Shown here: positions 25,185-60,736 of the stretch, one piece after another
Numbering within the stretch: the stretch's first letter is position 1
How the letters are laid out: each line of letters opens with the position of its first letter
DNA from: a virus
DNA: 64,000 nucleotides
IMG/VR virus record: IMGVR_UViG_3300028364_000018
Span: 1-64,000 of that record
Reading direction: 5' to 3' (one strand)
Program-made: the position numbers and the translations under genes
Notes under the pieces: model-generated
Seen by the model: only the letters and a program-made list of their open reading frames with translations
The model's database searches: none
What the model was told of the DNA's origin: nothing

Positions 25185-27085
25185 CCTACGCAGTAAAAGA
25201 CGGGCGAATTCAAGAGGTTGATGATCAGGAGATTGACATTGAGCTTCCGTCTGCCAATTCATTTTTAAGTATCCACGGTAACACCATTCCCATGCAGTCA
25301 GGGGTGCAGGCCCCCCGTGTGTTCTACGGGTCTAGGTTCTTGAATCAGGCACTACCGTTGGTCAACCCTGAGGCACCGCTGGTCCAGACCAAGATAGACG
25401 GACAGGACCGGAGCTTCGATCAGGAGCTAGGGAAGTCTATGGGCGCGGTATTCAGCGACAGACTTGGGCGGGTGCTGAACGTGGACAATGACCACGTCGA
25501 GTTAGAGGACCCGGAGACCGGGGAAACCTGGACTAAACAGCTTTATAACAACTTTCTTTTTAATCGTAAGACTAGTTTGCACAGCACCCCCAGTGTTAAG
25601 CAGGGAGATATGGTGGAGCCTGGCCAACTTCTGGCGCGCTCCAACTACACAGACGACAAAGGGACGTTGGCTATGAGTGTCAACGCCCGCATAGGTCTAG
25701 TCCCCTACAAGGGTTACTCCATGGATGACGCGGTGGTCATCAGCCAGAGCCTAGCCAATCGCCTTACTAGTAGGCAGACCTACGTAGAGGACCAAGAGTT
25801 TGATGGGGATGTTAAGGGTGGTAAGAATCATTTCCACTCGTTGTTCCCCACGGCTTTCAAGCAAACTCAATTGAAGAAGTTGGATGCAGAGGGGGTGGCG
25901 CGGGCCGGTCAGATTCTGGAGAAGGGTGACCCTTATGTGTTGGCGACCAAACCCAGGATGTTCACCTCACAAGCGGGGAGCTTGGGTAAGCTCAGCCGGG
26001 CTATGCAACAGACCCGGCAGGACGCGAGTTTGGTGTGGGATCACAATGAGCCTGGGACTGTGCAGGATGTCGTCCGGACTAAGAAAGGTGTGAAGGTAGT
26101 GATAGATACAGAGACACCTGTGATGGTGGGGGACAAGCTGACAGAGCGTCACGGAAATAAGGGCGTCGTATCCAAGATACTCTCTGATGAGGAGATGCCA
26201 CGCACTGTGGATGGTCTACCATTGGAGATGTTACTTAATCCTTTGGGAATTCCGAGCCGGGTGAATTCTGCGATGGTTTATGATATTTTACTGGGGAAGG
26301 TCGCCAAGAAAAGGGGCGAGGGTTACAATCTTCCGGCGTTTAATAAACCAGGGGAGAAATGGTATGACTTTGTAGAACAACAACTGGCGGAGCATGGGAT
26401 CGACGCGGAAGAACGGGTGTTTGATCCGATGGAGCAACGTGAATTGGAGAATCCAATTACAGTGGGTTACGCTCCTGTTATGAAGTTGCATCACATGGCC
26501 TCGTCGAAGCTCAGTGGTAGAAGTCAAGGCAGCTATTCGATGGACGAACAACCATTAAAAGGCGGATCCGACGCAGCCCAAGCCAAGCGTTTATCTGGAT
26601 TGGAACGTAATGCCCTAATCTCCAGCGGGGCCTACGCCACCCTACGAGAGAGTTCGACAATTCGAGGTCAGCGCAACGACGACTTCTGGAAGGCCGTTAG
26701 GTCAGGCCACACCCCGCGCGAACCAGGCTCACCCTTCGTCTGGGATAAGTTTCAGGCGCTTCTCCAAGGTAGTGGGATGCTCGCCAGAGATCTAGGTGGG
26801 GGCAAGCTGCGCCTCGGACCCTTTACCGATAAGAGCTTGGCGGAGCTCAAACCCCGAACGTTGGACAACGCCGACTCCGTTAACCCCGACACATTGGAGC
26901 CCGTAGCAGGCGGTCTGTTCGACCCTGTTCTGGTTGGTGGCGGACGTTGGGGTGCGATCGATCTGGATACCCCGGTACCCAACCCAGCGTTTGAGAAGCA
27001 GATAGCGCAATTGCTGGGCGTCCGGGAGAAGGATGTGCGTCGGGTGGTGGCAGGTGAGCTGGATCTGGAAGAAGCGCAAAAGTGA
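25181..27085 (+). CDS. rpoB: phage multi-subunit RNA polymerase: beta C-terminal half fused to beta-prime N-terminus
   Basis: GDKLTERHGNKGVVSKI, LNPLGIPSRVN and KLSGRS.GSYS..EQP.KGG (beta), then LEPVAGGLFDP..RWGAIDL..PVPNP (beta-prime start). Confidence 0.92.
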   Translation: MTYAVKDGRIQEVDDQEIDIELPSANSFLSIHGNTIPMQSGVQAPRVFYGSRFLNQALPLVNPEAPLVQTKIDGQDRSFDQELGKSMGAVFSDRLGRVLNVDNDHVELEDPETGETWTKQLYNNFLFNRKTSLHSTPSVKQGDMVEPGQLLARSNYTDDKGTLAMSVNARIGLVPYKGYSMDDAVVISQSLANRLTSRQTYVEDQEFDGDVKGGKNHFHSLFPTAFKQTQLKKLDAEGVARAGQILEKGDPYVLATKPRMFTSQAGSLGKLSRAMQQTRQDASLVWDHNEPGTVQDVVRTKKGVKVVIDTETPVMVGDKLTERHGNKGVVSKILSDEEMPRTVDGLPLEMLLNPLGIPSRVNSAMVYDILLGKVAKKRGEGYNLPAFNKPGEKWYDFVEQQLAEHGIDAEERVFDPMEQRELENPITVGYAPVMKLHHMASSKLSGRSQGSYSMDEQPLKGGSDAAQAKRLSGLERNALISSGAYATLRESSTIRGQRNDDFWKAVRSGHTPREPGSPFVWDKFQALLQGSGMLARDLGGGKLRLGPFTDKSLAELKPRTLDNADSVNPDTLEPVAGGLFDPVLVGGGRWGAIDLDTPVPNPAFEKQIAQLLGVREKDVRRVVAGELDLEEAQK

Positions 27086-34936: not shown

Positions 34937-35080
34937 ATGAATCAAGTAAAAAGAATGATGAGCTACCCCCGACGCATGTTCGAGCGCCTAACCCGGTTTT
35001 CGAACCACACAGGTCTGGCGCTGACAGAGATAGTCCGCCGGGCTGTTGATGAGTACCTGGATCGTAACGAAGTAAAATGA
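34937..35080 (+). CDS. ribbon-helix-helix DNA-binding protein (47 aa, not in ORF track)
   Basis: MNQVKRMMSYPRRMFERLTRFSNHTGLALTEIVRRAVDEYL; ATGA-coupled to tnpB. Confidence 0.75.
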   Translation: MNQVKRMMSYPRRMFERLTRFSNHTGLALTEIVRRAVDEYLDRNEVK

Positions 35081-36459
35081 AAGTCACACGCATCATAAAC
35101 GCCGAACCTAATCAGGCCTTGCTACCTATATGCAAGGCCACAGCGTTTATGCGTGCTGACATCTGGCGGCGTTACGGCGCACTAGGCACAGCCGGTAAAA
35201 GGTTGAACACCGTAAAACCCGAGCTGCCTGCGTTGTACAAGTACCTAGATCTGGACGGTACGATTCGGGCAGAGACTGCCAAAGACGTACTCAACGATAT
35301 ATACTCATACAAAGAGGCGGCCAAGGAGAGGGTGCGAAAGTCTGTTAGGAAGAGGGCCGAGACCGACGAGGAGTTGAAACGGTTGTACACCCTGCTTAAG
35401 AAAGATGAGTGGTTGGACGACAACTTCCTACACCGGCAGATGCGTAAGCACTTCAAGCACGGCGTAGCCCATTGCGCGAATCAATTTGTGGTTCGTAGTG
35501 ATAGGGTGCTGACCGAGGTAGTGGAAGGGCGCCTAGTTGTAATCCTAAAGATTGCACCAAAATACGGGAACTCTATAAGGCTGACTACCACAACAAGTGG
35601 TAAGAACGTAGACCTCAAGGGCTCGAACCTGCGAGTAATTGTGAAAGATACGGGGGTGGAGATCCACTACTGCGCAGACAAACAACCCGGACGAGCGCCA
35701 GGAGTGGGTAAGATTGGGGTGGATAAGGGTTACACTGAGGCGTTTGCCGATAGCCGGGGAGGTCTACACGGACAGGGTTTCGGGCAGACCATGACCAAGT
35801 TCAGCGACCGGGTTAAGGAGACGGGTAAGTCCCGTAACAAACTCCGCGCGTTGGAGGAGAAGCACCGGGAAGCCGGTAGGGTGGCTAAAGCAGACCGGAT
35901 TAATAAAAACAACTTAGGAAATAAGAAGATTGAGAGACGAAAAGAACGGACACAAAAGAGACTGCGGACAATCGCTTTCAAAGCGGCTCACGCAGTTGTT
36001 GACCATGCCTCCCATGTGGGAGCAGAAGATTTGAGTTCTCCGATATGCTCCAAGCATAAATGGAGGAATTACAATCGGAGAATGAGTTCCTGGGCCAAAG
36101 GCGTTTTAGCCGAGGCATTGGAAAACGTCACGCAACAGCGTGGCTCGAAGTTACAGCTTGTTGCTTCGGCCTACACATCGCAAATTGATTCACAGACGGG
36201 CTTGCTGGAAGGCCAGCGCGTCGGGGATCGGTTTTACCACGTAAGTGGGGATGTCAGTCAGGCCGACACCAACGCTGCACGAGTGATTGAGCGACGGATG
36301 GATGACCCGGAGATAGGGCGTTACACGCCCTTCAAAGACATCCGTCTGATACTACTCAATCGCTCTCCGGCGCAACTGAGCGTCAATAGGGTCGAGTTGG
36401 GATCTTTGGATCGTCAACCGACTGCGGATAAACTCAATGCGCACTTATACGCATACTAA
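35077..36459 (+). CDS. tnpB: TnpB RNA-guided endonuclease (RuvC intact, Zn-ribbon cysteines absent)
   Basis: IGVDKG (RuvC-I), AEDL (II), AYTSQ, ADTNAA (III). Confidence 0.9.
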   Translation: MKVTRIINAEPNQALLPICKATAFMRADIWRRYGALGTAGKRLNTVKPELPALYKYLDLDGTIRAETAKDVLNDIYSYKEAAKERVRKSVRKRAETDEELKRLYTLLKKDEWLDDNFLHRQMRKHFKHGVAHCANQFVVRSDRVLTEVVEGRLVVILKIAPKYGNSIRLTTTTSGKNVDLKGSNLRVIVKDTGVEIHYCADKQPGRAPGVGKIGVDKGYTEAFADSRGGLHGQGFGQTMTKFSDRVKETGKSRNKLRALEEKHREAGRVAKADRINKNNLGNKKIERRKERTQKRLRTIAFKAAHAVVDHASHVGAEDLSSPICSKHKWRNYNRRMSSWAKGVLAEALENVTQQRGSKLQLVASAYTSQIDSQTGLLEGQRVGDRFYHVSGDVSQADTNAARVIERRMDDPEIGRYTPFKDIRLILLNRSPAQLSVNRVELGSLDRQPTADKLNAHLYAY

Positions 36460-42218: not shown

Positions 42219-43025
42219 ATGAAAGATGATTTTGGAGATCGTATGAAAGGTTATGAGCGCTTAAGTGAGCCCTGTTTGATGCCGTTGCTGCCAACCTTCG
42301 CGCGCATAGACGGGCGGGCGTTTCATACCTTTACACAGGGGTTGCAACGTCCCTACGACGAGCGGTTGTCACAGGCCATGGTGGAGACCACAAAACTTCT
42401 GGCAGAAGAGACGGGGGCGTGCATGGCCTACACCCAGTCGGATGAGATTACGCTGGTTTGGTACACAACCAATCCCAAAATACAGATATGGTTTGGTGGT
42501 AAATACTCTAAGATCGTATCGCAGGTAGCGGCGCTGACCACTCTCTACTTTTACCGGGAGTGTTGCCAGCACCTACCCCAATACAACCAGAGACTGCCCT
42601 CATTTGATGCGCGCGTATGGCAGGTTCCTAACTTAGTGGAGGCCTCTAATGTGTTTCTATGGCGTGAGCAGGACGCAACACGCAACAGTATCCAGATGGC
42701 TGCCCAAGCGGTTTACTCACACAAGCAACTGCACGGAAAGAACACAAGTGAACAGCAGCAGATGTTGTTTGAGTCTGGTATCAACTGGAATGACTACCCT
42801 GCTTTTTTCAAACGGGGCACCTACGTGCAGCGTCAGAAGACGTTTAGGACTTTTTCATGTAATGAACTAGAGAGGCTCCCATCGAAGCATGCGGCGCGCA
42901 CCAACCCAGGGTTACAGGTAGAGCGTCAGGAGTATCACGAACTGAGTCTCCCACCGATGGGGTCAATACAGAATAAGGTTGGTGTTATCTTTGAGGGTCA
43001 GACGCCTAGTAATGAGAATTTATAG
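42219..43025 (+). CDS. thg1: tRNA-His guanylyltransferase Thg1-like (3-to-5-prime polymerase)
   Basis: RMKGYE, ARIDGRAFHTFT, YTQSDEI, FDAR, WREQDATRNSI. Confidence 0.95.
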   Translation: MKDDFGDRMKGYERLSEPCLMPLLPTFARIDGRAFHTFTQGLQRPYDERLSQAMVETTKLLAEETGACMAYTQSDEITLVWYTTNPKIQIWFGGKYSKIVSQVAALTTLYFYRECCQHLPQYNQRLPSFDARVWQVPNLVEASNVFLWREQDATRNSIQMAAQAVYSHKQLHGKNTSEQQQMLFESGINWNDYPAFFKRGTYVQRQKTFRTFSCNELERLPSKHAARTNPGLQVERQEYHELSLPPMGSIQNKVGVIFEGQTPSNENL

Positions 43026-47791: not shown

Positions 47792-48844
47792 CTATTGAAC
47801 CGAGTATAAAGCAGGAGGGCTATAAACTCCCCTGTTGCGAATGTTGATGGCTGCGTTTAAATCCGCATCCATACGATTATCACAAGCAGTACAAGCAAAG
47901 GCTTTCCCCTTACGGGAGGCCCGGTCTTGTACGCCGCACGCACTACAGGTCTGAGAAGTATAAGCCGGGTTGACCTTCGTAAAGGTCAACCCAGCTTCTT
48001 CACAAACAGATGCTAGCTTGCCCAAAACCTTTGGGTACGACCAGCGCTGTAGTTTGTTATTAAATTTCTTACTCATCTGCCCTCTGGATTTGTGCTTGAC
48101 CGACTTCAGGTCTTCAACCACAACCTCCCGTACCCCCGCCAAGTCCAACTTATTCACCACCCGGTTAATCAGGTTATCCCTCTCTGTCAGCGCCCGCTTG
48201 AAGGCCTGGGAGCCTTGTTTCTTACGTGCGATCTTTTCGTATTGAGCTTCAAGTTCCTGCCCATGCTCCACTCCTTCGGAGTCTGCGAGCAGCGTCTTGT
48301 AACCGCAATCATAACCAACGGACTTACCTTTCTTGACAGGAAGGGGCTCTACCTTCTCAGCATAAAGGTCCAAGTAATACCTATCCCCGGCCTTGCGTAG
48401 CCGGGAGCTCTGCTTGATTAAAAACCCTTTGTCCAGCAGGTCGAGCATATGACGATGCTTACGGCTAGGAAGATTTAGTATAATCTTAGATCCAAGACAG
48501 GAGAGTCTAAACCACACATCATATGAGTTTTGATCAAGTTTTATGTCTAAGAACCTAGCATCTAAGTTTATGGTCTTGCGTGTTAAGGTCGGTTTAGACT
48601 TCTTGCGCTTCTTACGTTGCGACTTAACGATCTCCAACGCTTGCTTACCCAGAGCCTGCTGTAATCGCGCGGATAACCATGTTGGGACTTTATAAGTAAC
48701 GAACTTGGAAGAAAAGTCCCGCTCATCCCACAACCTGTCAATAAACAGATTCACAACTTTAACCGACTCTTCCAGCACCCGGTCAAGCTCCAGTAGCTTT
48801 CCATGGTTGGAGTCTGCCAGATTAAATTGTATACGTCTAATCAT
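47792..48844 (-). CDS. tnpB: IS607 TnpB RNA-guided endonuclease
   Basis: VGYDCG, VVEDL, AYTSQTCSACG..CTAC, ADLNAAINI. Confidence 0.92.
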   Translation of the reverse strand: MIRRIQFNLADSNHGKLLELDRVLEESVKVVNLFIDRLWDERDFSSKFVTYKVPTWLSARLQQALGKQALEIVKSQRKKRKKSKPTLTRKTINLDARFLDIKLDQNSYDVWFRLSCLGSKIILNLPSRKHRHMLDLLDKGFLIKQSSRLRKAGDRYYLDLYAEKVEPLPVKKGKSVGYDCGYKTLLADSEGVEHGQELEAQYEKIARKKQGSQAFKRALTERDNLINRVVNKLDLAGVREVVVEDLKSVKHKSRGQMSKKFNNKLQRWSYPKVLGKLASVCEEAGLTFTKVNPAYTSQTCSACGVQDRASRKGKAFACTACDNRMDADLNAAINIRNRGVYSPPALYSVQ

Positions 48845-49406
48845 TACTAAGCTCTTTTATTAATTTTTCCGTTTTTCGCTTAGTTCTTCTAAGTCCGTAA
48901 AGTCTGGCACAAAAAGAGGTGACTAAAGACACAAAGTCTTGCATCAGATCTTGCTTGTCGTCCTCTACCTTATTGACCACCACCAATTCTGCATTACGCT
49001 CATCCATCAATACTTCAAGATACTTAAACCCGAACCTTGTTAGCCTGTCTTTATGCTCTACAATGATGCGCGTGTAAGTCGGATCTTTTAATAACCGCAG
49101 TAACTTAGGTCTTGCATCATTTAACCCGGAGCCCACCTCTTTTACTACAGCATCAACACCCCAACCTCTCGCGTTAGCGTATGCGACGAGTCTGCTGGCC
49201 TGCCCTTCTAAGTTAGATTCGTTCTGCGAGGAGCTAACTCTAGTGTAAATAGCAGTTTTTTCCGGGCGTTGTGGTGCATCCTCCGGTATAAGAATCTTAC
49301 CTAGGTCATCCTTAAACGCGCCGGGTATTTTGCCAAGGTTAAACCTGTTCCACGCAGCTCGGTACTGTATACCGTGCTGTTTTGCATATTTACTTAGTGT
49401 CAACAT
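48837..49406 (-). CDS. tnpA: IS607 TnpA serine recombinase
   Basis: N-terminal HTH; IYTRVSS; EVGSGLN; IIVEHKDRLTRFG. Confidence 0.95.
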   Translation of the reverse strand: MLTLSKYAKQHGIQYRAAWNRFNLGKIPGAFKDDLGKILIPEDAPQRPEKTAIYTRVSSSQNESNLEGQASRLVAYANARGWGVDAVVKEVGSGLNDARPKLLRLLKDPTYTRIIVEHKDRLTRFGFKYLEVLMDERNAELVVVNKVEDDKQDLMQDFVSLVTSFCARLYGLRRTKRKTEKLIKELSND

Positions 49407-49622: not shown

Positions 49623-49700
49623 CTCTCTAAGGGCCATTTGGTAGGCCACTCCGTTTGGGGCGGAGAAATCGTACAGGTTCGACTCCTGTTAGAGAGACCA
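49623..49700 (+). tRNA. tRNA-Pro(TGG)
   Basis: CTCTCTA/TAGAGAG acceptor; CTCCG-TTTGGGG-CGGAG; TTCGACT; CCA. Confidence 0.9.
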
Positions 49701-49964: not shown

Positions 49965-50041
49965 GCCCTTGTAGCTCAGTTGGTAGAGCACCCCACCTGT
50001 ACTGGGGATGTCGTCGGTTCGATTCCAGGCCAAGGGCTCCA
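49965..50041 (+). tRNA. tRNA-Thr(TGT), partly degenerate (C33, weak T stem)
   Basis: GCCCTTG/CAAGGGC-T-CCA; CCCCA-CCTGTAC-TGGGG. Confidence 0.75.
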
Positions 50042-50082
50042 TTTATACTTCCCTTTGACCTCCGGGCATGCTACGGATCTGT

Positions 50083-50214
50083 ATGGCCTTACTACTCAAA
50101 AACAGCGTGTTCCTGCATATCCCCAAAACAGGCGGGAACTATGTCCAGGCTATCCTAGAAAGGATTATGCATCAGGAAGAATGGGCAATGACGTACTTCG
50201 ACTACCAAAGTTAG
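50083..50214 (+). pseudogene. truncated sulfotransferase N-terminus (43 aa)
   Basis: VFLHIPKTGG PAPS-binding motif, then a stop. Confidence 0.6.
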
Positions 50215-50217
50215 TTC

Positions 50218-50252
50218 TTCCATTCCCACCATACTTACGCTATAACAACCGT
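50218..50252 (+). promoter_or_regulatory. sigma70-like leaderless promoter
   Basis: TTCCAT-17-TATAAC-6nt-ATG(50253). Confidence 0.5.
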
Positions 50253-51308
50253 ATGCCAGATAAAGCCCTATTCCAGATGTTAGCCGCCAAGAACGACAGT
50301 GACCAAGGTCAGTACAAAGCCAAGGCGGACAAGATGTTTAAGCTCCTGATGACACAACCGGATGAGTTTGAGGTGGAGGACGATCCCAAAGGTGGGCATC
50401 CTCTCCTCACCCATCGCCCCACCCACTTCAAGATGCACCTACCTAAGCGGTACATCCCGGCACGTGTATGGGACTCCCCGCACGAAGCGTTGGTTAGCAG
50501 GGAAGTGATAGATAAAGAAAAGGAGGCGAGCACTAAGGAGGACCGAGCGGTCCCTGCTTACGTAGCCAAGCAAGCTGGACTCCCCAGGAGTGTGAAGATG
50601 ATACCTTACATTCGGAATTACGCAGACGAGGGTATGCGGCAGATTCTATCACGACCCCGATGGCCAGCTACCCTACGGGAGCCACTACCATGGGGTAACT
50701 TTGCCGCATACGCGCCGGAAGGTACAAATGCTTACAACGTGATAGGCTCTGACATCCCCAAGGTACTACAAGGGATGGGTTACGGTCGGAAAATGTATGG
50801 AGCAGCAATACGTACAGCGTATGAGGACTACCTAAAAGGGGGTCCTCGGTGGTTTGGGTCAGATAGCAGTGGGCGGACCACTACTAAGGCTTGGCACCTG
50901 TGGGAGAGCCTACAGAGAAGAGGTTACCCGGCTAAACAGATGCCGATGGATTTCCCCAGAAAAGGTTACCACTCACGATGGGCCATCGACTTAGATGACA
51001 TGAAGAAATTTTACAAGGATGTTAAACCCAATGGTCCGGCTACGGGCAAGCCCGTGACACGCGTAGGTCCCCCGGTTAAGGAAGCAAGCGTCCCGTCCGA
51101 CAAACAACTGCTGTCCCAGACCGACCTGAACCCCAGTGAAGCTCAGCAGGAAGCCGGTAACTACCGGAAGGCCCATATCAAACTACATGGGTTGGACATC
51201 TCAATCGAGAATCCCCGGGGAAGTACCAGGAGCGGGGTTGGTCCAGATGGTAAAGAGTGGAGCCACAAGCTCGATCTACACTATGGATATATCAAGGGCT
51301 TCAGCTAA
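50253..51308 (+). CDS. multidomain putative virion protein: unknown domain, GNAT-like domain, N-half of a phage inorganic pyrophosphatase-like (InPase) domain
   Basis: True start MPDKAL at 50253 (the ORF-track start lies inside a tRNA); QGMGYGRKMY; GNYRKAH..LDISIENPRGSTRSG..HYGYIKG. Confidence 0.7.
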   Translation: MPDKALFQMLAAKNDSDQGQYKAKADKMFKLLMTQPDEFEVEDDPKGGHPLLTHRPTHFKMHLPKRYIPARVWDSPHEALVSREVIDKEKEASTKEDRAVPAYVAKQAGLPRSVKMIPYIRNYADEGMRQILSRPRWPATLREPLPWGNFAAYAPEGTNAYNVIGSDIPKVLQGMGYGRKMYGAAIRTAYEDYLKGGPRWFGSDSSGRTTTKAWHLWESLQRRGYPAKQMPMDFPRKGYHSRWAIDLDDMKKFYKDVKPNGPATGKPVTRVGPPVKEASVPSDKQLLSQTDLNPSEAQQEAGNYRKAHIKLHGLDISIENPRGSTRSGVGPDGKEWSHKLDLHYGYIKGFS

Positions 51309-51338
51309 GCTCCAGCCTTCCTTTTTTTAGCTATGACC

Positions 51339-51373
51339 TTGACCAACGCCCCTTTAAATACTACCATCCGAGG
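51339..51373 (+). promoter_or_regulatory. sigma70-like leaderless promoter inside the split InPase domain
   Basis: TTGACC-17-TACCAT-6nt-ATG(51374). Confidence 0.7.
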
Positions 51374-54300
51374 ATGAATACCAAACTACAGGCCATAGAC
51401 GGAGACGCCCCAGATTGCTTTATAGGACCTAACCCTGAATCTACCAAGGTTTGGGTGGTAGACCAATGCAAACCCAATGGGAAGTTTGACGAGCCCAAGG
51501 TACTACTGGGGTTCGACACCCAGAAGGAAGCTACGGACGGATATCTCAGTGCTTACGATGAAGGCTGGAAGCTGGGGCCGGTCACTGCCTGCACCATAGA
51601 TGAGTTAAAGGGTTGGTTGGGGGATGGGTGTGTGCCCCATGAGTTTGCTGAGTATAAGAAGGGGGTGAAGTCGGAAGGAGAGAAGGAAGCGGCTAGTAAC
51701 TCAGTAGCCCTCATCAAGGGTAACCCTAAGCACATCAAAGACAATCCCAACGCTACGTCCTTCTATGAACAACTAGAAGGGTTACTACAAGAACAAGGCT
51801 ACGACGTAACTATGGATGACGGAGAACCCTTCACACAACCCGGAGAAGGGCACTCAGCATGGATCGGGCATAGTAGAGGTGGGGATAGGTTAAGGTTTGC
51901 GCCTGAGGGTGTAAGCACCCTAAGGTTAGACGACTACGAGCCAGAAGACTCACATGGGGAGGATGGTGTTCCTAATGACAACCACTATATGATAACAGAT
52001 GAGATGCGTGAAGCTATACTCGGGTTGTCTAAGAGTGGCGAGAAGAGTGCTAACGGCGGGCGAGCTGTGGGGTTGGATAATTTTGACGGCTCGACGCAGG
52101 ACCCAAACCTAGGCACACCCCAACCCAACCTTGCTCTCGGCATACGGGATTTGGCGAAGCAAGCTGGCCAGGCGCCGACCACAGGGACCCCCACTCCATG
52201 GGCGGGGCAAGAACAGATGCTCAAACACCTGTGGAACGCCGAGAACAACATACGCGACGGTTACAACCCGCAGTCCGGGACTTGGACAACCTACGATGAC
52301 AACGGCACGCCCGCTGTAGGACCCGGAGTACGTGTACCAGGTAAACAAGGCCAGACTTGGACGGATCAGCAGGTACAGGAGTTGGCGATTACCTCGATGC
52401 AAGAACACCTGGAACGGACCCGCAGGCGTTACCCACAGTTCGATACACTACCCATGCATTATCAGATGGGCTTGGTGGACGCCACCTACAACAGCGTGCG
52501 AACACCCCTGATGTACCAAGCGATGTTGGATGGGGATCATCGACGTGTGCTCGGAGAGAACTCAACACATTGGACGGATAAACATGGTGTTCGGCAACCG
52601 CATACCCGTCGGGATGGACTCAGACAGGAACTGATGGCACCTCCGGGCGGTGTACCAGCCCTTCCCACTCCACAACCCACGCCTACTCCAACCCCAGTGC
52701 CTACTCCCGCCCCAGCTGTTGCCCCAGCTGCAACCCCCGCACCCACAGGTCCCACGATGGCCCCAGGGCCGGGCGTACCTGCTCCTGCTGGGTACATGCC
52801 AACCACTGACAACCCCCCTACAAGCTACCATCAGGGTGCTGACGGTGCTGTGAGCTACATGGTACCCAAGAGCGGGGCTGTCGTGGAAAGGGCTGTGACC
52901 GGCCCCAGGGCGCTGGCTGAGGCCCTATCCGAGTTAGATCTGGATAAGCTGGAGGCCGAACAACGGGAGATCATCAAGAGCGGTAGTCGGAGTAAACGCT
53001 CTAAGGCTGTGCAGATCCTGGGCGCTATTGAAGGCCTCCGCCGTAATGAACTGACACCCAATCAGCTGATGATCAGCCGTGTGCCGGTCTTGCCCGCGCA
53101 ATTCAGACCTTTCAGCGCACAGGGCACGACCTTCATCCCCGGAGATGCTAATGTACTGTACAAAGACCTGTTTAACCTGAAGAAGGCCTATGCACAGGAG
53201 AGTCAGGTGTTTGGCGAGGACCAGGCAGGGGAAAGCCGGGGGTCGCTCTATGATGCGGTACGCGCTGTCTACGGTTACGGACCTCCGACCAACGATAAGG
53301 CGCGGGCCAAGGGTGTGAGCGGTTTCATGCAGAAGGTGCTGGGTGCTGGGTCCCCGAAACACAGTTTTTACCAACGAAACCTGATTAGCAAGACCCAGGA
53401 CAGCTCCGCACGCTCTGTGATTGGGGTGGACCCAGAGTTGGGCATGGATGAGATTGGTATACCCCAGGAGATGGGTTGGACTTTGTATGGGCCTTGGGTG
53501 CAGCGACGGCTCGTGCAGTCAGGGATGAATCCGGGCACGGCGTTGGAGAATGTCCGGGATCGGACGGACTATGCTGTGCGAGCTTTGGAGAAGGAGATGA
53601 GGGAGAGGCCGATTTTGGCGACGCGTAGTCCTGTATGGTGGAAATTCGGCGTGCTAGGCCTTACCCCGCACCTAGTAGATGGTGATGCGATTATGTCCAA
53701 CCCTTGGATTGAAACCGGCCTGGGCGCGGATCACGATGGTAATTGCGTCATAATCGGAACCAAGTTGATGGTGAAAGTACAGGATGTAAGGCTCGTGGCT
53801 GATAGGTCAGGAGATTGTGTCATAATCAGCGTTGACAAGGATAGGGAGACTGGTTATGATAGGCGTTACATGAGAATACCTAAAGGCGCCAAGGTTCTTT
53901 CCCAGCTCGGAACCGATACCATCATTGAGCTACCTATTGAAAACTTCCCACGCATGGGAGAGGCGCACACCGCTAAAGACGGAGGACTAACCTACGAAGT
54001 CCCGCCAGGAGTCCAGGTCCTGACCAACGCCCCGGACGGTCTGGGTGTGCGCTGGACACCGGTCACGACCTTCACGGTGGATGGAGTTAAACCCATACGC
54101 AGGCTTACCAGCAGCTCTAAGAAGGTGGTGGAGGTTAGCAACAATGAGTCAGTGGCAATCTACAACAAAGGTGGAACCATCGGAAGGACCAGCCCGGATG
54201 AACTCCGACCCTGGGATATGGTACCAACCATCCGTAACCTACCGGAGCCTGCTGAATCACGTTCATGTCCTTGGGCGTGGTTCTACGGAGCGTTCGTATC

Positions 54301-55600
54301 CGACGGCTGGGTTAGCGAGGGTAAGACAGTTGGTTACACCAAGGTAGATGCGGCTAAGCGTCGGCGTTTCCTGAAAGAGGCGGTGGAGTTCATCGGCATG
54401 GATGTGGACGTCAAACACTACTCTGAGACTCACGAGGCCCTGACCAACTCCGGCATTGGCGGTGAAAGCACTAAGATACATATCAACCTACGAGAGGATT
54501 CCCCGCAGGGTGTTCGGGACATGATCGAGGCCTTGGAGCGTTGTTACCACCCGAGTGTAAAGGATCGGGAGCCCGACCAACGCAGTTGCCTATTCAAACG
54601 ACTTCCTCCCGGTTATTTGGAATGGGACCAACCCAGTCGCATGGATTTGTTCTCCGGACTGCTGGATGGGGACGGTTGTATATCAATCAACAACTCCAGA
54701 GCCAAGCCCCAGGTGCTGGTTAACTTCAGTACCAGCTCCCCCTTCCTCAGGGACGACGTCTTCAAGCTATGTCTATCTCTGGGCATCCGGTGCTCCACCT
54801 CAGTGGGAGAGGCCAAGAAAGAGCGGGTACAGACACACGAGAGTTATGTGATGAACATCAGTACCCCGGACCTACTACCACTCGCGGGTCAACTGAACAT
54901 GGTGGAGAATAATAGGGGCCTGCAGATGCTACGAGCCTGCCCCAGCTTGAAGGATGACCGGGATACTCTACCTGTGGAGGAACCACTCCTGCACCAAGCC
55001 TGTGTACTCGGCGCGTTAGACCCCAAGGGCTCTAGTAACAGAGTGACTCTGATGGACTTGCGGTCTAAAGCTCGTCGTCAAGAGGGTTTGGTGGGAGTCA
55101 CCCGTAATCTTGCACGCAATCTCCTACAGGATTACCTGGGCGAGCGTGATGAGCGCTGGGAGGTGTTGGAACGCCTTGTTCAGGACACATCCCTTGGTTG
55201 GGAGACCATCAAGACCGTGGAGGACACGGGAGAGGCTGAGGTATTTGATATCGGAGTACCGGAGACCAAGGTCTATGCCTTGAGTAACGGCCTCATCATC
55301 TACGACACCTTCAACGTACATCTCCCAGCCTCTGCGAAGGGTGTGGAGGAGGCGCGGACCATCTTGAAGCCCAGTAGCATGCTGTTCCAAACCCGGGATC
55401 CCGGTAAAATTTTGCCGGTTCCCAAACATGAGCAAATTTCGGGAATTTCTTCAGCCATGCGACGCCCTGCCCGGAACTCCCACGTGTTTACCTCGGAGGA
55501 GGAGGCGATTAAGGCTATCAACAGTAAGCAGGTGAGCATGTCGGATGAAATAACGATTAGTGCCTTGCCAAACCCAACTCAAACCCCTACAATACTCTGA
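51374..55600 (+). CDS. rpoC: polyprotein: InPase C-half, small domain, lysozyme-like domain, Pro-rich linker, RNA polymerase beta-prime central part with intein
   Basis: DGDAPDCFIG..DEPKVLLGF; EN..YDDNGTPAVGPG..VDATYN; PVLPAQFRP, SKTQDSSARSVI, GADHDG, VHLP. Confidence 0.88.
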   Translation: MNTKLQAIDGDAPDCFIGPNPESTKVWVVDQCKPNGKFDEPKVLLGFDTQKEATDGYLSAYDEGWKLGPVTACTIDELKGWLGDGCVPHEFAEYKKGVKSEGEKEAASNSVALIKGNPKHIKDNPNATSFYEQLEGLLQEQGYDVTMDDGEPFTQPGEGHSAWIGHSRGGDRLRFAPEGVSTLRLDDYEPEDSHGEDGVPNDNHYMITDEMREAILGLSKSGEKSANGGRAVGLDNFDGSTQDPNLGTPQPNLALGIRDLAKQAGQAPTTGTPTPWAGQEQMLKHLWNAENNIRDGYNPQSGTWTTYDDNGTPAVGPGVRVPGKQGQTWTDQQVQELAITSMQEHLERTRRRYPQFDTLPMHYQMGLVDATYNSVRTPLMYQAMLDGDHRRVLGENSTHWTDKHGVRQPHTRRDGLRQELMAPPGGVPALPTPQPTPTPTPVPTPAPAVAPAATPAPTGPTMAPGPGVPAPAGYMPTTDNPPTSYHQGADGAVSYMVPKSGAVVERAVTGPRALAEALSELDLDKLEAEQREIIKSGSRSKRSKAVQILGAIEGLRRNELTPNQLMISRVPVLPAQFRPFSAQGTTFIPGDANVLYKDLFNLKKAYAQESQVFGEDQAGESRGSLYDAVRAVYGYGPPTNDKARAKGVSGFMQKVLGAGSPKHSFYQRNLISKTQDSSARSVIGVDPELGMDEIGIPQEMGWTLYGPWVQRRLVQSGMNPGTALENVRDRTDYAVRALEKEMRERPILATRSPVWWKFGVLGLTPHLVDGDAIMSNPWIETGLGADHDGNCVIIGTKLMVKVQDVRLVADRSGDCVIISVDKDRETGYDRRYMRIPKGAKVLSQLGTDTIIELPIENFPRMGEAHTAKDGGLTYEVPPGVQVLTNAPDGLGVRWTPVTTFTVDGVKPIRRLTSSSKKVVEVSNNESVAIYNKGGTIGRTSPDELRPWDMVPTIRNLPEPAESRSCPWAWFYGAFVSDGWVSEGKTVGYTKVDAAKRRRFLKEAVEFIGMDVDVKHYSETHEALTNSGIGGESTKIHINLREDSPQGVRDMIEALERCYHPSVKDREPDQRSCLFKRLPPGYLEWDQPSRMDLFSGLLDGDGCISINNSRAKPQVLVNFSTSSPFLRDDVFKLCLSLGIRCSTSVGEAKKERVQTHESYVMNISTPDLLPLAGQLNMVENNRGLQMLRACPSLKDDRDTLPVEEPLLHQACVLGALDPKGSSNRVTLMDLRSKARRQEGLVGVTRNLARNLLQDYLGERDERWEVLERLVQDTSLGWETIKTVEDTGEAEVFDIGVPETKVYALSNGLIIYDTFNVHLPASAKGVEEARTILKPSSMLFQTRDPGKILPVPKHEQISGISSAMRRPARNSHVFTSEEEAIKAINSKQVSMSDEITISALPNPTQTPTIL
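53744..55306 (+). mobile_element. intein (521 aa) with LAGLIDADG homing endonuclease
   Basis: Starts CVIIG; YGAFVSDGW and FSGLLDGDG; ends VFDIGVP..YALSNGLIIYD before Thr. Confidence 0.9.
53832..53860 (+). promoter_or_regulatory. near-consensus sigma70-like promoter inside the intein coding sequence
   Basis: TTGACA-17-TATGAT; in-frame ATG 9 nt later (53870). Confidence 0.6.
55565..55593 (+). promoter_or_regulatory. sigma70-like promoter overlapping the end of the RNAP gene
   Basis: TTGCCA-17-TACAAT. Confidence 0.55.
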
Positions 55601-56791: not shown

Positions 56792-58009
56792 ATGGCTGAC
56801 AAAGACTTAAAATTCATTCAAGAAAATGTGGACGGACTGTTTGAAGAACGCACAGTAACGCCCGTATCCGGACAGGCGTTGATGTTTGACTCAGAGGGGT
56901 TTCCCGTGAGTGGAAATGCCGCTGAACCTTTCACCCTCCACGACGTAACCAACGCCCAACGCCTCGCAGGAACACGCAACGACGACACCACGCCTCTTGT
57001 CGCTGGTGACACGGTGCGGGTGACTGACCTGCCTGATGACCCGATCATGCTTATGCTGGGTACTGGTGATTGGACTACGATTTCAGAGCCGTTACAGATG
57101 CCATATTTCACGGCCCATACTTTTGTAACAACCGCAACGGATACGGTAGAAGCTTACAACGGAGATATCCCCGACGACTTTGCTTCAACAAATAGTTTAG
57201 GAAGCGCAAAAGCCCTTTCTTTAGGTAATTCAGTTACATCTATTGGCAGTGAGGCTTTTTATAATTGCTCAGGATTTACAGGATATTTAAATATTCCTGA
57301 TTCCGTTACATCTATTGGAAATAATGCTTTTAGGAGTTGCTCAGGATTTACCAGTTTAACAATTCCTGATTCAGTTACAACAATTGGAAATAATGCTTTT
57401 AGGAGTTGCTCAGGATTTACCAGTTTAACAATTCCTGATTCAGTTACATCTATTGGAAGTTATGCTTTTGCTGGTTGCTTAGGATTAACAGGAAGTTTAA
57501 CAATTCCTGATTCCGTTACATCTATTGGAAATAATGTTTTTGCGTATTGCACAGGCTTCACAGGAAGTTTAACAATTGCTGATTCAGTTACAAGTATTGG
57601 AAGTTATGCTTTTTATACTTGCACAGGATTTACAGGAGATTTAAATATTCCAGATTCAGTTACATCTATTGGAAGTAGTGCTTTTTGGGGTTGCACAGGA
57701 TTTACAGGAGATTTAAATATTCCTGATTCAGTTACATCTATTGGAGGTCAGGCTTTTCAGGGTTGCTCAGGCTTCACAAGTTTAACAATTCCTGATTCAG
57801 TTACATCTATTGGAGGTGGTGTTTTTAGGGATTGCACAAACCTTACAAACGTAAATTGCTATGTAACCAAAACTATATTTAATCAAAGTAATGTTTTAGC
57901 AGGAACAGGAGTTACAACCTTACACGCCCTTGCAAGTGATGGAACATGGACAGCAGGTGCCGACACAATTGGTGGAAAAGCATTAACAGTAATTAAGGAT
58001 TTGGTGTAA
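56792..58009 (+). CDS. BspA-type leucine-rich-repeat (LRR_5) protein
   Basis: About 11 repeats of IPDSVTSIGxxAFxxCxGFT. Confidence 0.92.
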   Translation: MADKDLKFIQENVDGLFEERTVTPVSGQALMFDSEGFPVSGNAAEPFTLHDVTNAQRLAGTRNDDTTPLVAGDTVRVTDLPDDPIMLMLGTGDWTTISEPLQMPYFTAHTFVTTATDTVEAYNGDIPDDFASTNSLGSAKALSLGNSVTSIGSEAFYNCSGFTGYLNIPDSVTSIGNNAFRSCSGFTSLTIPDSVTTIGNNAFRSCSGFTSLTIPDSVTSIGSYAFAGCLGLTGSLTIPDSVTSIGNNVFAYCTGFTGSLTIADSVTSIGSYAFYTCTGFTGDLNIPDSVTSIGSSAFWGCTGFTGDLNIPDSVTSIGGQAFQGCSGFTSLTIPDSVTSIGGGVFRDCTNLTNVNCYVTKTIFNQSNVLAGTGVTTLHALASDGTWTAGADTIGGKALTVIKDLV

Positions 58010-58010
58010 T

Positions 58011-58808
58011 ATGAAAACTGTTCATTATACATCGGGACTTCCGAGAGCTTGCTCCAGCCTCCTCCAAAACCTCCTTGCCCAGAATCCTCAAGTCCATGCC
58101 ACGGCCACAAGCGGTGTGCATGAGATAGGGTATATCGCCCGTGGGTTCTTTGACACGGAAGAGTTCAAGACTTTCAAGAACCCACTTGACGGAGAACAGC
58201 AATACTATGACTTCCTCCGTGGCGGTATTCAATCCGCTTTCGACTCCCGTACAGACAGACCGATTGTGGTTGATAAGTGTCGTTCGTGGGTGGGGCACCT
58301 AGACCAACTCTTCAAAGTCTTTCCCGATGCAAAGGTGCTTGTTCCTGTTCGTGATGTCCGTGGAATCCTGACTTCCCTTGAGAAGAAACGAGCGCAACAC
58401 CCTTCACGATTTACGGGAGTGGAAAAAGCTAACCCGCAAAACTGGACGACCGTTGAAAAGCGGGCACAAGGTTGGCTTTCGATCCCACCCCTTTCAATCG
58501 CTCTTGAGCGCATTCATGATGCGGTGCGTACCCATAAAGGCAGGCTTCACTTTGTACACGCTGAAGACCTGACAAACGATCCACAAGAAACGATGAACAA
58601 GGTCTGGTCGTATCTGGGGATGGATCCATTTGTACACAACACCAATAACGTGGAACAATACACCACCGAACATGAGCTTGGATTCCCCTATGGGGACCAT
58701 AAAATAAGACCCAAGATCGAACCGCTTAAAAAAGAGTGGAACGAGGTATTGGGCAGAGATTTATCAAGCGCAATCGCAACAAAATTCCAATGGATAAACG
58801 AATTATGA
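58011..58808 (+). CDS. sulfotransferase family protein
   Basis: SGLPRACSSLLQNLL..NP; VDKCR; VRDVRGILTS; HAEDL. Confidence 0.85.
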   Translation: MKTVHYTSGLPRACSSLLQNLLAQNPQVHATATSGVHEIGYIARGFFDTEEFKTFKNPLDGEQQYYDFLRGGIQSAFDSRTDRPIVVDKCRSWVGHLDQLFKVFPDAKVLVPVRDVRGILTSLEKKRAQHPSRFTGVEKANPQNWTTVEKRAQGWLSIPPLSIALERIHDAVRTHKGRLHFVHAEDLTNDPQETMNKVWSYLGMDPFVHNTNNVEQYTTEHELGFPYGDHKIRPKIEPLKKEWNEVLGRDLSSAIATKFQWINEL

Positions 58809-59362
58809 AATACGCAATAACAGGACCAAGAGGACGGATATTTAATATCCTAGACGAAGAACCGCAACGGGAGCATTCTTCTCTTACGGACGAACAAGCG
58901 GTGCAAGCCTCCGAGGGTATCTGGTTCATCGTCGAAGGTGAGTTAAAAACACAGGCGGAGTTCCGTGTAGTGGCACAGGCACAGAGACAGGCTGAACGCA
59001 TGACTGAGCTGTATGCTCAAGACCCGGCCCAAGCCAAGGCACACAAACGCCAAGCGCTATCGGATGCACGCTACCAAGCGGAGATAGGAGGCACGACCTT
59101 CAACGGCATCCCCCTCCGCACGGACAGGCAGACGCAGGCAACGCTCACAAGCGCGATGCTCTTTGCGCAAGCCGATGCAAACTTCACGACTGACTGGAAG
59201 CTGGGCGATGGGCAATTTATCACGCTGGATGCCGCGACTGTCATCGGCCTTGCGGGTGCGGTTCTCTCCCATGTGCAGACGCAATTCACGCGGGAGAAAG
59301 ACCTAAATGCCCTTGTCGATTCCGCGACTACCGCCGAAGAACTTAACACCATCACTTGGTAA
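58805..59362 (+). CDS. DUF4376-like tail-fibre-associated protein
   Basis: RYQAEIGG..TDRQTQATLT..WKLGDGQFITLDA..VQTQFTRE; start at 58805. Confidence 0.7.
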   Translation: MKYAITGPRGRIFNILDEEPQREHSSLTDEQAVQASEGIWFIVEGELKTQAEFRVVAQAQRQAERMTELYAQDPAQAKAHKRQALSDARYQAEIGGTTFNGIPLRTDRQTQATLTSAMLFAQADANFTTDWKLGDGQFITLDAATVIGLAGAVLSHVQTQFTREKDLNALVDSATTAEELNTITW

Positions 59363-59372
59363 CAAATAAATT

Positions 59373-59762
59373 ATGACAAAATTACTACTAACGATTTGCA
59401 TCCTGACTTTTACAGGGTGCTCAACTCCTACCCCGTCTGACTCCAAACCTGTACCGGAAAACTACATGGGGCATCCTACGCTCACGCGTGGGCTTTTCCG
59501 AGAGCTACATGGCTCCTACTTTAACGAGACCGCTGAAAGTCGTATGGTGGTGCGGGTTGAGATGGGCACTGAGTATCAATACGAGTACTCCTCACGCCTC
59601 TACGAAAATAAGCTTACCTATGAGTTCCGCGTTTGGATCGGTAATACGCAAACGGATTTTGATCGAGCGGTAAGCGACATCATGGCGACGATTAAAACCC
59701 TGCCAGAAGAGGATTGGGGTAAGCTTGATGTCGGTCTAAATTATGATCGGGGTCAGCTATGA
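59373..59762 (+). CDS. lipoprotein
   Basis: Signal peptide with lipobox FTGC. Confidence 0.7.
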   Translation: MTKLLLTICILTFTGCSTPTPSDSKPVPENYMGHPTLTRGLFRELHGSYFNETAESRMVVRVEMGTEYQYEYSSRLYENKLTYEFRVWIGNTQTDFDRAVSDIMATIKTLPEEDWGKLDVGLNYDRGQL

Positions 59763-60736
59763 CGTTTCGGGTCGATGATCATGGGGCATCTACCCCGCCT
59801 GATGTAATTCGGGTTTTGGTTAATGATACCTGGGGCGGAGAATTGCACCCCGCGCAAGCCAAGCTGTTTCCTTGGGCAGATGTCCGTCGATTGGACTACA
59901 AAGCTCTACGCAATCCGCACGGTCACATGGTTCTTGTAGAGTTTCTGCTTGCTTTAAAACGTGCACACATCGAAAAATACGGGATACTTCCAAACCGCGT
60001 AGAGGTTGATATGTTTCCGTTTTTAGAGATGCAACGCAAGTATCCAGATAGCTGGTTTACAAATATTGCAAAGAAAAAGTATCATGCCGTAATCAATTCT
60101 TGGGGGGATGCCTCTCGCTCCATTTTAGACATGGCCTTTGCCAAATCTAAATTTGCTCAATCCGATAAGCGTAAACGCATTGAGGATGCTGTAGGTGACA
60201 CGCTCCTTTTTTGGGCTTCGGGAAATTCGGATGTTTCGGAGCGTGGAAAGCCTGATGTCCAGTTAAATCTAAATTATACGCAATACCTTTTACGGAGATT
60301 TATCGAGTCCTCAATCATTGTGGGCAGCTGCGATCAGGTTGGATTGCCGTCAACTTTTTCGTCCGATGGCTGGGTGGATGTCGCGTACCGCGGCGAAAAT
60401 ATCTTGTTGTACAATCCGATCAACCGCAAATACCAAAAGGGTCAGGGCACAAGCTTTTCAAATCCTGCGGCCTCCGGTGACTGTGTAGGCCGTGGCCTGT
60501 TTACTGCTGAGGGCGTAAGAGCCTATTTCAAGGCTCGAGCAACCTCTCATCCATCTTGGGATGGGGACAAGTTGCATCCTAAATTTGGTGAGGGTGTGAT
60601 CGTTTTTGATGGTGAGAAGCAAGTCACGAGTGATGTGCTGGCGATGCCGCTATCGTGGCACGATAATAAAAAACTGACCGTGTTTAACCACCGCCGATTT
60701 ATTAGCGGTTTGAAACTTCGTCGGGTGAGTCGATGA
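59759..60736 (+). CDS. subtilisin-like (S8) serine peptidase
   Basis: VLVNDT (Asp), PHGHMV (His), WASGNS (oxyanion Asn), GTSFSNPAASG (Ser). Confidence 0.7.
   Translation: MTFRVDDHGASTPPDVIRVLVNDTWGGELHPAQAKLFPWADVRRLDYKALRNPHGHMVLVEFLLALKRAHIEKYGILPNRVEVDMFPFLEMQRKYPDSWFTNIAKKKYHAVINSWGDASRSILDMAFAKSKFAQSDKRKRIEDAVGDTLLFWASGNSDVSERGKPDVQLNLNYTQYLLRRFIESSIIVGSCDQVGLPSTFSSDGWVDVAYRGENILLYNPINRKYQKGQGTSFSNPAASGDCVGRGLFTAEGVRAYFKARATSHPSWDGDKLHPKFGEGVIVFDGEKQVTSDVLAMPLSWHDNKKLTVFNHRRFISGLKLRRVSR

Follow-up and report, generated by a model that had tools for sequence, protein, structure and literature searches.

An intein family directly behind the magnesium-binding loop of a phage RNA polymerase module, with asparagine encoded in place of the third aspartate

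Inteins of RNA polymerases (RNAPs) are known from the archaeal subunits Mja rPol A′ and A″ and Nph rPol A″, and from the eukaryotic and viral second-largest subunits RPB2, RPA2, and RPC2, where they start with Cys and end with His-Asn or Gly-Asn (PMC1635734). Inteins ending with Asp, Gln, or Glu are thought to follow the same splicing steps, with that residue being cyclised (PMC4031507). Tko CDC21-1 is the one functional intein known without the block B histidine (His B:10), and it compensates with a lysine of the intein (PMC4031507). Here we describe an intein of 521 amino acids (aa) at the Mg-binding aspartate triad of a β′-type RNAP module, in which the third Asp of the triad is encoded as Asn. 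It lies in the IMG/VR virus record IMGVR_UViG_3300028364_000018, which originates from lake water, has 122,487 bp, and is estimated to be 63% complete. The window, meaning the whole stretch of DNA analysed, is positions 1 to 64,000 of this record. A close relative of this phage was not found in the GenBank phage collection.

The intein and the loop before it

The open reading frame (ORF) at 51257..55600 is translated as GADHDGN (53723..53743), followed by CVIIG...NGLIIYD and then by TFNVHLP. Its parts are as follows.

51257..55600, plus strand: polyvalent protein ORF, 1447 aa from GTG at 51257, the longest ORF over the intein; the database copy (P0002) begins with ATG at 51374
52874..53743, plus strand: N-extein, a β′-type RNAP module with the Mg loop at its end (PF04997/PF00623, phrog_25354, and homologues)
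53729..53743, plus strand: Mg loop D-H-D-G-N; the third-ligand codon is AAT (Asn-1) at 53741..53743, Asp in intein-free relatives
53744..55306, plus strand: intein, 521 aa; Cys1 TGC at 53744..53746, Tyr-Asp end TAC GAC at 55301..55306, with the terminal Asp GAC at 55304..55306
54137..54151, plus strand: block B equivalent S-N-N-E-S, intein residues 132-136, placed by conservation
54281..54679, plus strand: LAGLIDADG endonuclease core (PF14528, PF05204, conservation, and fold matches)
54281..54310, plus strand: endonuclease motif 1, F-Y-G-A-F-V-S-D-G-W
54647..54679, plus strand: endonuclease motif 2, L-F-S-G-L-L-D-G-D-G-C
55193..55306, plus strand: blocks F and G, with the invariant Trp486, V-F-D-I-G-V-P-E with the invariant Asp502 (F:4, GAT at 55247..55249), and the end N-G-L-I-I-Y-D
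55307..55600, plus strand: C-extein T-F-N-V-H-L-P..., Thr+1 ACC at 55307..55309; 97 aa and the stop codon

An intein in the Mg triad of an RNAP had been proposed here in a sequence-only reading, and the translation, the Pfam signals, and the predicted fold all confirm it. The alignment of the flanks with bacterial NADFDGD-QMAVHVP holds as well, and splicing at the usual positions would indeed yield DHDGN. The lack of a His-Asn end had also been read correctly: the end is Tyr-Asp here, and Tyr, Trp, Phe, or others precede the Asp in the family.

The domain order in the ORF, based on Pfam and PHROGs, is the second half of an InPase, a lysozyme-like domain, a Pro-rich linker, Rpb1 domains 1/2 (residues ~590-744), and the intein signals; LAGLIDADG, Hom_end, and Intein_splicing are found by Pfam within residues 936-1347. 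The PF00623 match of the β′ module is above the cut-off (31.9 bits), and bacterial β′ proteins are among the homologues. The β′ genes of jumbo phages match 16-19% of the ORF protein at 25-30% identity.

An AlphaFold2 model of the insert and short flanking segments, for which 31 homologues were used, has a predicted local distance difference test score (pLDDT) of 84.7 and a predicted template modelling score (pTM) of 0.83. Its best Protein Data Bank (PDB) matches by Foldseek are TliVMA 7qss, PI-PfuI 1dq3, PhoVMA 7qst, and PI-SceI, with E-values from 6e-18 to 1e-11 for TliVMA, PI-PfuI, and PI-SceI. The endonuclease part matches the fold of I-DmoI and I-OnuI. Searching the PDB chains with the intein sequence gave zero matches, and these structures were identified by the fold search only. 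The acidic residues are retained in both LAGLIDADG motifs; the PF14528 match (E 3e-6) is above the cut-off and that of PF05204 is weak.

The intein has the HINT fold, Cys1, Asp at F:4, and Thr+1, as class 1 inteins do, while it lacks Thr-x-x-His in block B and ends with Tyr-Asp instead of His-Asn. Cys1 and the Asp at F:4 do not agree with class 2 or class 3, which lack an N-terminal nucleophile and have Ala1 with Cys+1, or Trp-Cys-Thr with Cys at F:4. In the block B equivalent, the family shows no variation at Asn134 and Ser136 and 92% conservation at Glu135, and there is no His at the canonical place of His B:10. The loop D-H-D-G-N departs from the Asp triad of β′ modules as encoded, and would do so also after splicing at the usual positions.

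The sequence-only reading depended on AAT, rather than GAT, at 53741, and independent contigs read AAT. Contigs from three further lake-water runs (X3, X4, and X5) span the N-side junction, and two of these (X3 and X4) span the C-side junction, in each case with 0 differences. None of the public runs listed for this DNA is an RNA run. Sequencing error as the source of AAT and GAC is rejected on the identity of these independent contigs. The insert is a genuine mobile intein, and it is probably competent to splice.

Asparagine and intein among the homologues

Homologues were collected by a word-indexed search, by phmmer against the full set of 1.84 billion representatives (2752 matches, 602 of them below 1e-30), and by a third search that started from the closest intein-free relative. 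The 321 homologues were sorted into junction classes by aligning the two extein flanks locally, and these classes include the following.

Intein-free alleles (n = 76): DxDGD in all; position +1 is T in 38, A in 25, Q in 11, and N in 2
Alleles with this intein type (n = 101 complete, with 3 more truncated on the C side): DxDGN throughout; Cys1; Asp end; position +1 is T in 98 and S in 3
Alleles with Asp-ending inteins and Asp-1 (n = 12): DxDGD; Ser1 in 9 and Cys1 in 3
Alleles with other inteins at the same point (n = 16): DxNGD, with Asn at the second Asp

Asn is thus present in the triad of 117 intein-bearing alleles, versus none of the 76 intein-free ones. Intein-free relatives with DHDGN, which would have told against the sequence-only reading, were not found: neither DxDGN nor DxNGD occurs without an intein in the 76 proteins, in 11 IMG/VR loci, or in 94 more distant β′ proteins. 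The third Asp codon is GAY in 11 of 11 intein-free IMG/VR loci, and the IMG/VR locus L011 has DFDGN followed by C, with the codons AAT TGC. The sequence is joined exactly at the insertion point in all 76 intein-free homologues and all 11 loci. A chance origin of the N/C...D/T arrangement is rejected, as 101 diverged homologues have it and 0 of 76 intein-free alleles do.

The residue before the terminal Asp in the DxDGN alleles is Y (58), W (32), F (6), or others. Across 98 members of the family, which share ~25-45% identity, Asn-1, Cys1, Asn134, Ser136, Trp486, Asp502, and Asp521 are invariant, and Thr+1 is nearly so. Block B is S-x-N-E-S in the family and S-x-D-H-S in the sister clade, the latter corresponding to the usual Thr/Ser-x-x-His. 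The family is large, old, and mobile, and is under clear purifying selection. Mini versions of 248-302 aa without the endonuclease (P0165, P0232, and P0235) keep all of Asn-1, Cys1, the Asp end, and Thr+1, which argues that the junction residues would be selected for splicing, beyond mobility alone. Thr or Ser at +1 is invariant in intein-bearing alleles, while T is seen in just 38 of the 76 intein-free alleles and A, Q, or N in the others; therefore, the +1 nucleophile is needed only with the intein.

Two phylogenies place the Asn with the intein. On the tree of Asp-ending inteins, from which the first and last residues were excluded, Asn-1 and Asp-1 are separated by one split with a support of 98. 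On the extein tree, from which the triad and position +1 were excluded, the Asn label requires 18 changes, at least 13 of which are forced by well-supported branches. The exteins nearest to that of this phage are intein-free (P0010, 64% identity) or have a different intein. The single split on one tree and the at least 13 changes on the other indicate that Asn travels with the intein and not with the host lineage. The simplest reading of the trees is that the intein would have homed into many polymerase lineages and carried the -1 codon along each time.

Asn-1, Cys1, and the Asn-Glu shift in block B represent one event on the intein tree. Their covariation is not statistical evidence of coupling, and only their later invariance is informative. 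Since Ser1 to Cys1, Asp-1 to Asn-1, and block B His to Glu fall on a single event, their coupling is argued from chemistry and not from statistics: the Glu replacing the block B His would repel the carboxylate of Asp-1.

The 16 DxNGD alleles show Asn at another position of the triad. Five of them (P0225, P0236, P0244, P0252, and P0292) have a fully canonical intein, with Ser1, T-x-x-H, a His-Asn end, and Thr+1, and their N-extein ends with D-F-N-G-D, where the second catalytic Asp is encoded as Asn before Gly. In the remaining eleven, the intein lacks both an N-terminal nucleophile and the block B His, and it ends with Ser-Asn. Splicing chemistry is unable to reach residue -3, so triad Asn generally accompanies inteins at this site. 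These alleles favour a common and simple cause: fewer carboxylates and weaker Mg binding near labile (thio)esters would help splicing, with one neutral ligand being tolerated by the polymerase. Such a cause, shared by DxNGD and DxDGN, makes an exotic reaction unnecessary for the allele of this phage.

The same site is occupied by a second intein family (P0009, P0012, P0017, P0188, and ~40 other homologues, as well as loci L014 and L024). Its position 1 is not Cys, Ser, or Thr (D, Q, A, M, E, F, and so on) and a conserved Cys is found nowhere. It has T-D-D-D-P-R without His in block B, Asp in block F, Ser-Asn as its last residues, and Thr at +1; eleven members have D-x-N-G-D. This family resembles class 2 inteins in Ser at G:6 and in the lack of an N-terminal nucleophile, and differs from them in having Thr, not Cys, at +1.

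Apparent naturally split inteins are also seen at this site (L016-L023 from IMG/VR, P0348-P0350, P0345/P0346, P0026, P0326, and P0343). At these loci the β′ ORF ends 12-13 residues past DFDGD, for example with C-Q-W-G-H-V-F..., which implies a very short N-intein part. In L020, ...V-V-L-S-N followed by a T-M-N-V-H-V-P piece lies ~670 codons downstream, and possibly a free-standing gene stands between the two parts.

The polymerase module and the fate of the asparagine

The β′ match in the polyvalent ORF is the only one in the 122-kb record, and the record likewise has a single β-type match.

25181..27085, plus strand: gene for the β-like partner subunit, Rpb2 domain 6 (PF00562, E 3e-64)

This partner has G-Y-S-M-D-D-A at the place of the bacterial E-D pair. 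The phage appears to have its own small two-barrel RNAP, the β′ part of which is the C-terminal module of the polyvalent protein. Of 29 columns with at least 93% conservation among intein-free alleles, the extein keeps 28. The sole deviating column is a His to Trp change in R-S-P-V-W-W (53627..53650; motif R-x-P-x-W-H). This His is 99% conserved in intein-free alleles, and Tyr or Trp replaces it in 8 of 94 Asn-bearing alleles and in 1 of 75 intein-free alleles. Across ~100 diverged Asn alleles, no variation is seen at the first two Asp, the Gly, and the R-x-P motif, and the family has the key Arg and Pro in 100% of its members. Relaxed constraint on Asn exteins was considered and is not seen for this phage; higher numbers of mismatches elsewhere reflect distance from the reference set.

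In three fused β-β′ homologues that bear Asn (P0139, P0147, and P0220), the first acid of the E-D pair is an amide (Y-Q-D, S-N-D, and H-Q-D). These enzymes would hold even fewer carboxylates near the metals.

Splicing at the ordinary positions to DHDGN-T, with the Asn tolerated as an Mg ligand, is tentatively favoured. We infer that the intein splices, that it does so at N/C and D/T, and that the Asn is retained. Cys1 would form a thioester with Asn-1, the N-extein would be transferred to Thr+1, the terminal Asp would be cyclised, and the ligated product would read D-H-D-G-N-T. An Asp adjoining a thioester readily gives an anhydride, which leads to hydrolysis or to a β-linked product. Asn-1 might serve the intein in this respect, as the carboxylate of Asp-1 by the thioester would promote the anhydride, with N-cleavage or an isoAsp link as the outcome, and Mg would be kept near the labile bonds by a full Asp triad. 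Asn-1 would have arisen once in the intein lineage, alongside Cys1 and the block B change from His to Glu, and would have been installed at each transfer. In the mature polymerase, the side-chain oxygen of Asn could be a neutral ligand of the tightly bound Mg.

Several facts weigh against this view. The Asp triad is described as universally conserved and as binding the tight Mg (bioRxiv 10.1101/2024.06.20.599782), and all 94 of the more distant β′ proteins have DFDGD. The absence of Asn from all 76 intein-free alleles would be odd were Asn harmless. A compensating acid was not found in the E-D pair of the β subunit, which is D-D in this phage and the same in its intein-free relatives. Besides, the family is without His B:10, the most conserved intein residue, and its chemistry may be non-standard. 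Three canonical assisting or cyclising residues are replaced at once: the block B His by Glu, the penultimate His by Tyr, Trp, or Phe, and the terminal Asn by Asp.

The strict confinement of triad Asn to intein-bearing alleles would also be expected if Asn-1 were a precursor residue. With the same junctions, its conversion to Asp or isoAsp might accompany or follow maturation, so that an active DHDGD would be formed only after the intein has acted; the conversion could be spontaneous, or aided by the conserved Asn134, Glu135, and Ser136 at the junction. The universal Asp triad elsewhere and the conserved non-canonical Asn/Glu/Ser cluster in place of the block B His are in keeping with such a conversion, as is Asn-Gly in the other kind of Asn allele, D-x-N-G-D, since Asn-Gly is the dipeptide that deamidates spontaneously the fastest. 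However, no known intein step removes the amide nitrogen of residue -1, Asn-Thr is generally known to deamidate slowly in peptides and the succinimide route to give mostly isoAsp, and the sequence data nowhere require the conversion, which, as the chief alternative, is possible and somewhat doubtful. That the third Asp is regenerated by deamidation, or by a related reaction promoted by the Asn/Glu/Ser pocket, so as to activate the polymerase after the intein acts, would be rather unlikely. If the conversion does occur, the intein would be hard to lose and could time the activation of the polymerase. It would be an addiction device, since a phage that lost the intein DNA precisely would be left with a crippled DxDGN enzyme. 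The post-translational switch for RNAP put forward in the sequence-only reading is speculation. A DHDGN module might instead make no RNA and serve as a structural or DNA-binding passenger in which the intein merely persists. The missing third Mg ligand, the conserved His changed to Trp in R-S-P-V-W-W, and the frame break that splits the upstream InPase domain would fit a dead or re-purposed module. The retention of 28 of 29 conserved columns and the invariance of two Asp, Gly, and R-x-P in ~100 Asn alleles do not, and this is the only β′ module of the record, with an intact β-like partner. The arrangement has also persisted across at least 13 host lineages, and loss of activity is considered improbable.

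The sequence-only reading also held that the missing Asp is the last residue of the intein and could be retained by non-canonical splicing. Excision of N-C...Y with a Gly-Asp join would give DHDGD-T and would restore the intein-free sequence exactly, as compared with P0010; the insertion would be a pure one between Gly and Asp at the DNA level, and Asn and Asp indeed look swapped relative to the canonical D/C...N/T. The sister clade contradicts this. It has both Asp-1 and an Asp end (DFDGD/S...QD/T), and therefore the terminal Asp is the intein family's own and not a displaced extein Asp. The invariant Cys1 and Thr/Ser+1, the latter invariant only in intein-bearing alleles, set the junctions at N/C and D/T, so retention of the terminal Asp is unlikely, and no nucleophile stands beside the Gly-Asn or Tyr-Asp bond. 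Excision of this kind is very improbable. Cleavage without ligation would start from the fact that Asn-Cys is the canonical junction for cyclisation of Asn. The N-fragment would be freed at Asn-1 or at the thioester, opening of a succinimide would leave an Asp-like isoasparagine, and the 97-aa C-fragment would bind non-covalently. Hydrolysis of a succinimide can yield iso-Asn (PMC4031507). Other phages have split β′ subunits. The T or S at +1, invariant in all intein-bearing alleles, argues for transesterification and ligation instead, and such an outcome has no known chemical precedent; it is most unlikely as well.

Gene context and comparison with known systems

The InPase and lysozyme domains are typical of polyvalent virion proteins (PMC5512222), and the product of the ORF is probably virion-borne. 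The paper describing those proteins mentions InPase, and neither an intein nor a β′ module (PMC5512222). The InPase domain of this phage (51069..51628) is broken over two ORFs. The first, which stops at 51308, has profile positions 1-54 at its end, and the profile resumes with positions 56-134 in the next frame from ~51389. In comparison with the homologue P0006 there are ~86 extra nucleotides (51288..51382), including a run of seven T; this region is covered by the probable source run alone. A split gene, a frameshift, or a small insertion might account for the break.

On the minus strand, immediately upstream of the polyvalent gene, is an IS607-like pair: 48837..49406 encodes a serine resolvase, and 47792..48844 a TnpB/Cas12f-like protein. 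A further TnpB-like ORF is at 35077..36459. Genes for tRNA-Pro (49623..49700) and tRNA-Thr (49965..50041) follow. The latter overlaps the 5′ end of a mechanically called ORF (49980..51308), the true start of which is therefore further downstream, near M-P-D-K... at ~50253. A gene for a Thg1-like tRNA-His guanylyltransferase is at 42219..43025. Downstream of the polymerase gene, 56792..60736 encodes a BspA-type leucine-rich-repeat (LRR) protein, a sulfotransferase, a DUF4376 protein, and a subtilase.

Literature searches gave no description of an intein at this point, of a DxDGN or DxNGD polymerase, or of this histidine-free intein family. Two textbook invariants are broken together here, the Asp triad of two-barrel RNAPs and the set of His B:10 and His-Asn of inteins. 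If the mature enzyme uses D-x-D-G-N, the third Asp would be dispensable in this class of polymerases, and an intein would not be traceless but could force an altered catalytic site on its host. Regeneration of the Asp would instead mean a new intein-coupled maturation reaction, and possibly an activation switch for a phage polymerase. The element is an intein by category, and it would be categorically new only if the Asp is regenerated. A histidine-free, rewired splicing centre is of possible use in intein engineering.

Among described systems, class 1 inteins with a nested LAGLIDADG endonuclease, such as TliVMA (7qss), PI-PfuI (1dq3), and PI-SceI (1vde/1ef0), share the HINT fold with an inserted endonuclease, Cys1, the block F Asp, a hydroxyl nucleophile at +1, in-frame insertion at a conserved active-site motif, and the existence of intein-free relatives. 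They differ from the family described here in block B, which has Glu here, in the end, which is Tyr, Trp, or Phe followed by Asp here, and in the obligate extein Asn-1 that replaces a catalytic residue of the host; the solved chains have no sequence match to it. With the inteins that end with Asp, Gln, or Glu (Mills, Johnson & Perler 2014, PMC4031507), it shares the terminal Asp, and the same four steps would be expected. Unlike those, the family here, with >110 clusters at a single site, has Asp as a fixed end. To our knowledge, the known inteins with such ends keep His B:10 and leave the catalytic residues of their hosts unaltered; those of ribonucleotide reductase were reportedly studied by Amitai et al. 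in 2004. Tko CDC21-1 is similar in the absence of the block B His, and differs in that the family here has conserved replacements, Asn134, Glu135, and Ser136, together with the extein Asn-1, which might compensate for it.

The elements of the sister clade (DFDGD/S...S-x-D-H-S...x-D/T; for example P0014 and P0201) are homologous, occupy the same insertion point, have the Asp end, and are one split away. They have Asp-1, keep His B:10, start mostly with Ser1, and would restore a normal DFDGD loop. The known RNAP inteins are likewise found in conserved parts of the two largest subunits, but none of them is reported to change the Mg triad, and the hosts here are phage mini-RNAP modules, often within polyvalent virion proteins. 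Finally, the module is similar to the multisubunit β′ NADFDGD loop in that the flanks can be aligned (R-x-P-x-x-H..., D-x-D-G-x, and x-x-N-x-H-x-P) and that a β-like partner is present. Unlike multisubunit β′, it has the third Asp encoded as Asn, ends 97 aa past the loop, and is fused to an InPase half and a lysozyme-like domain.

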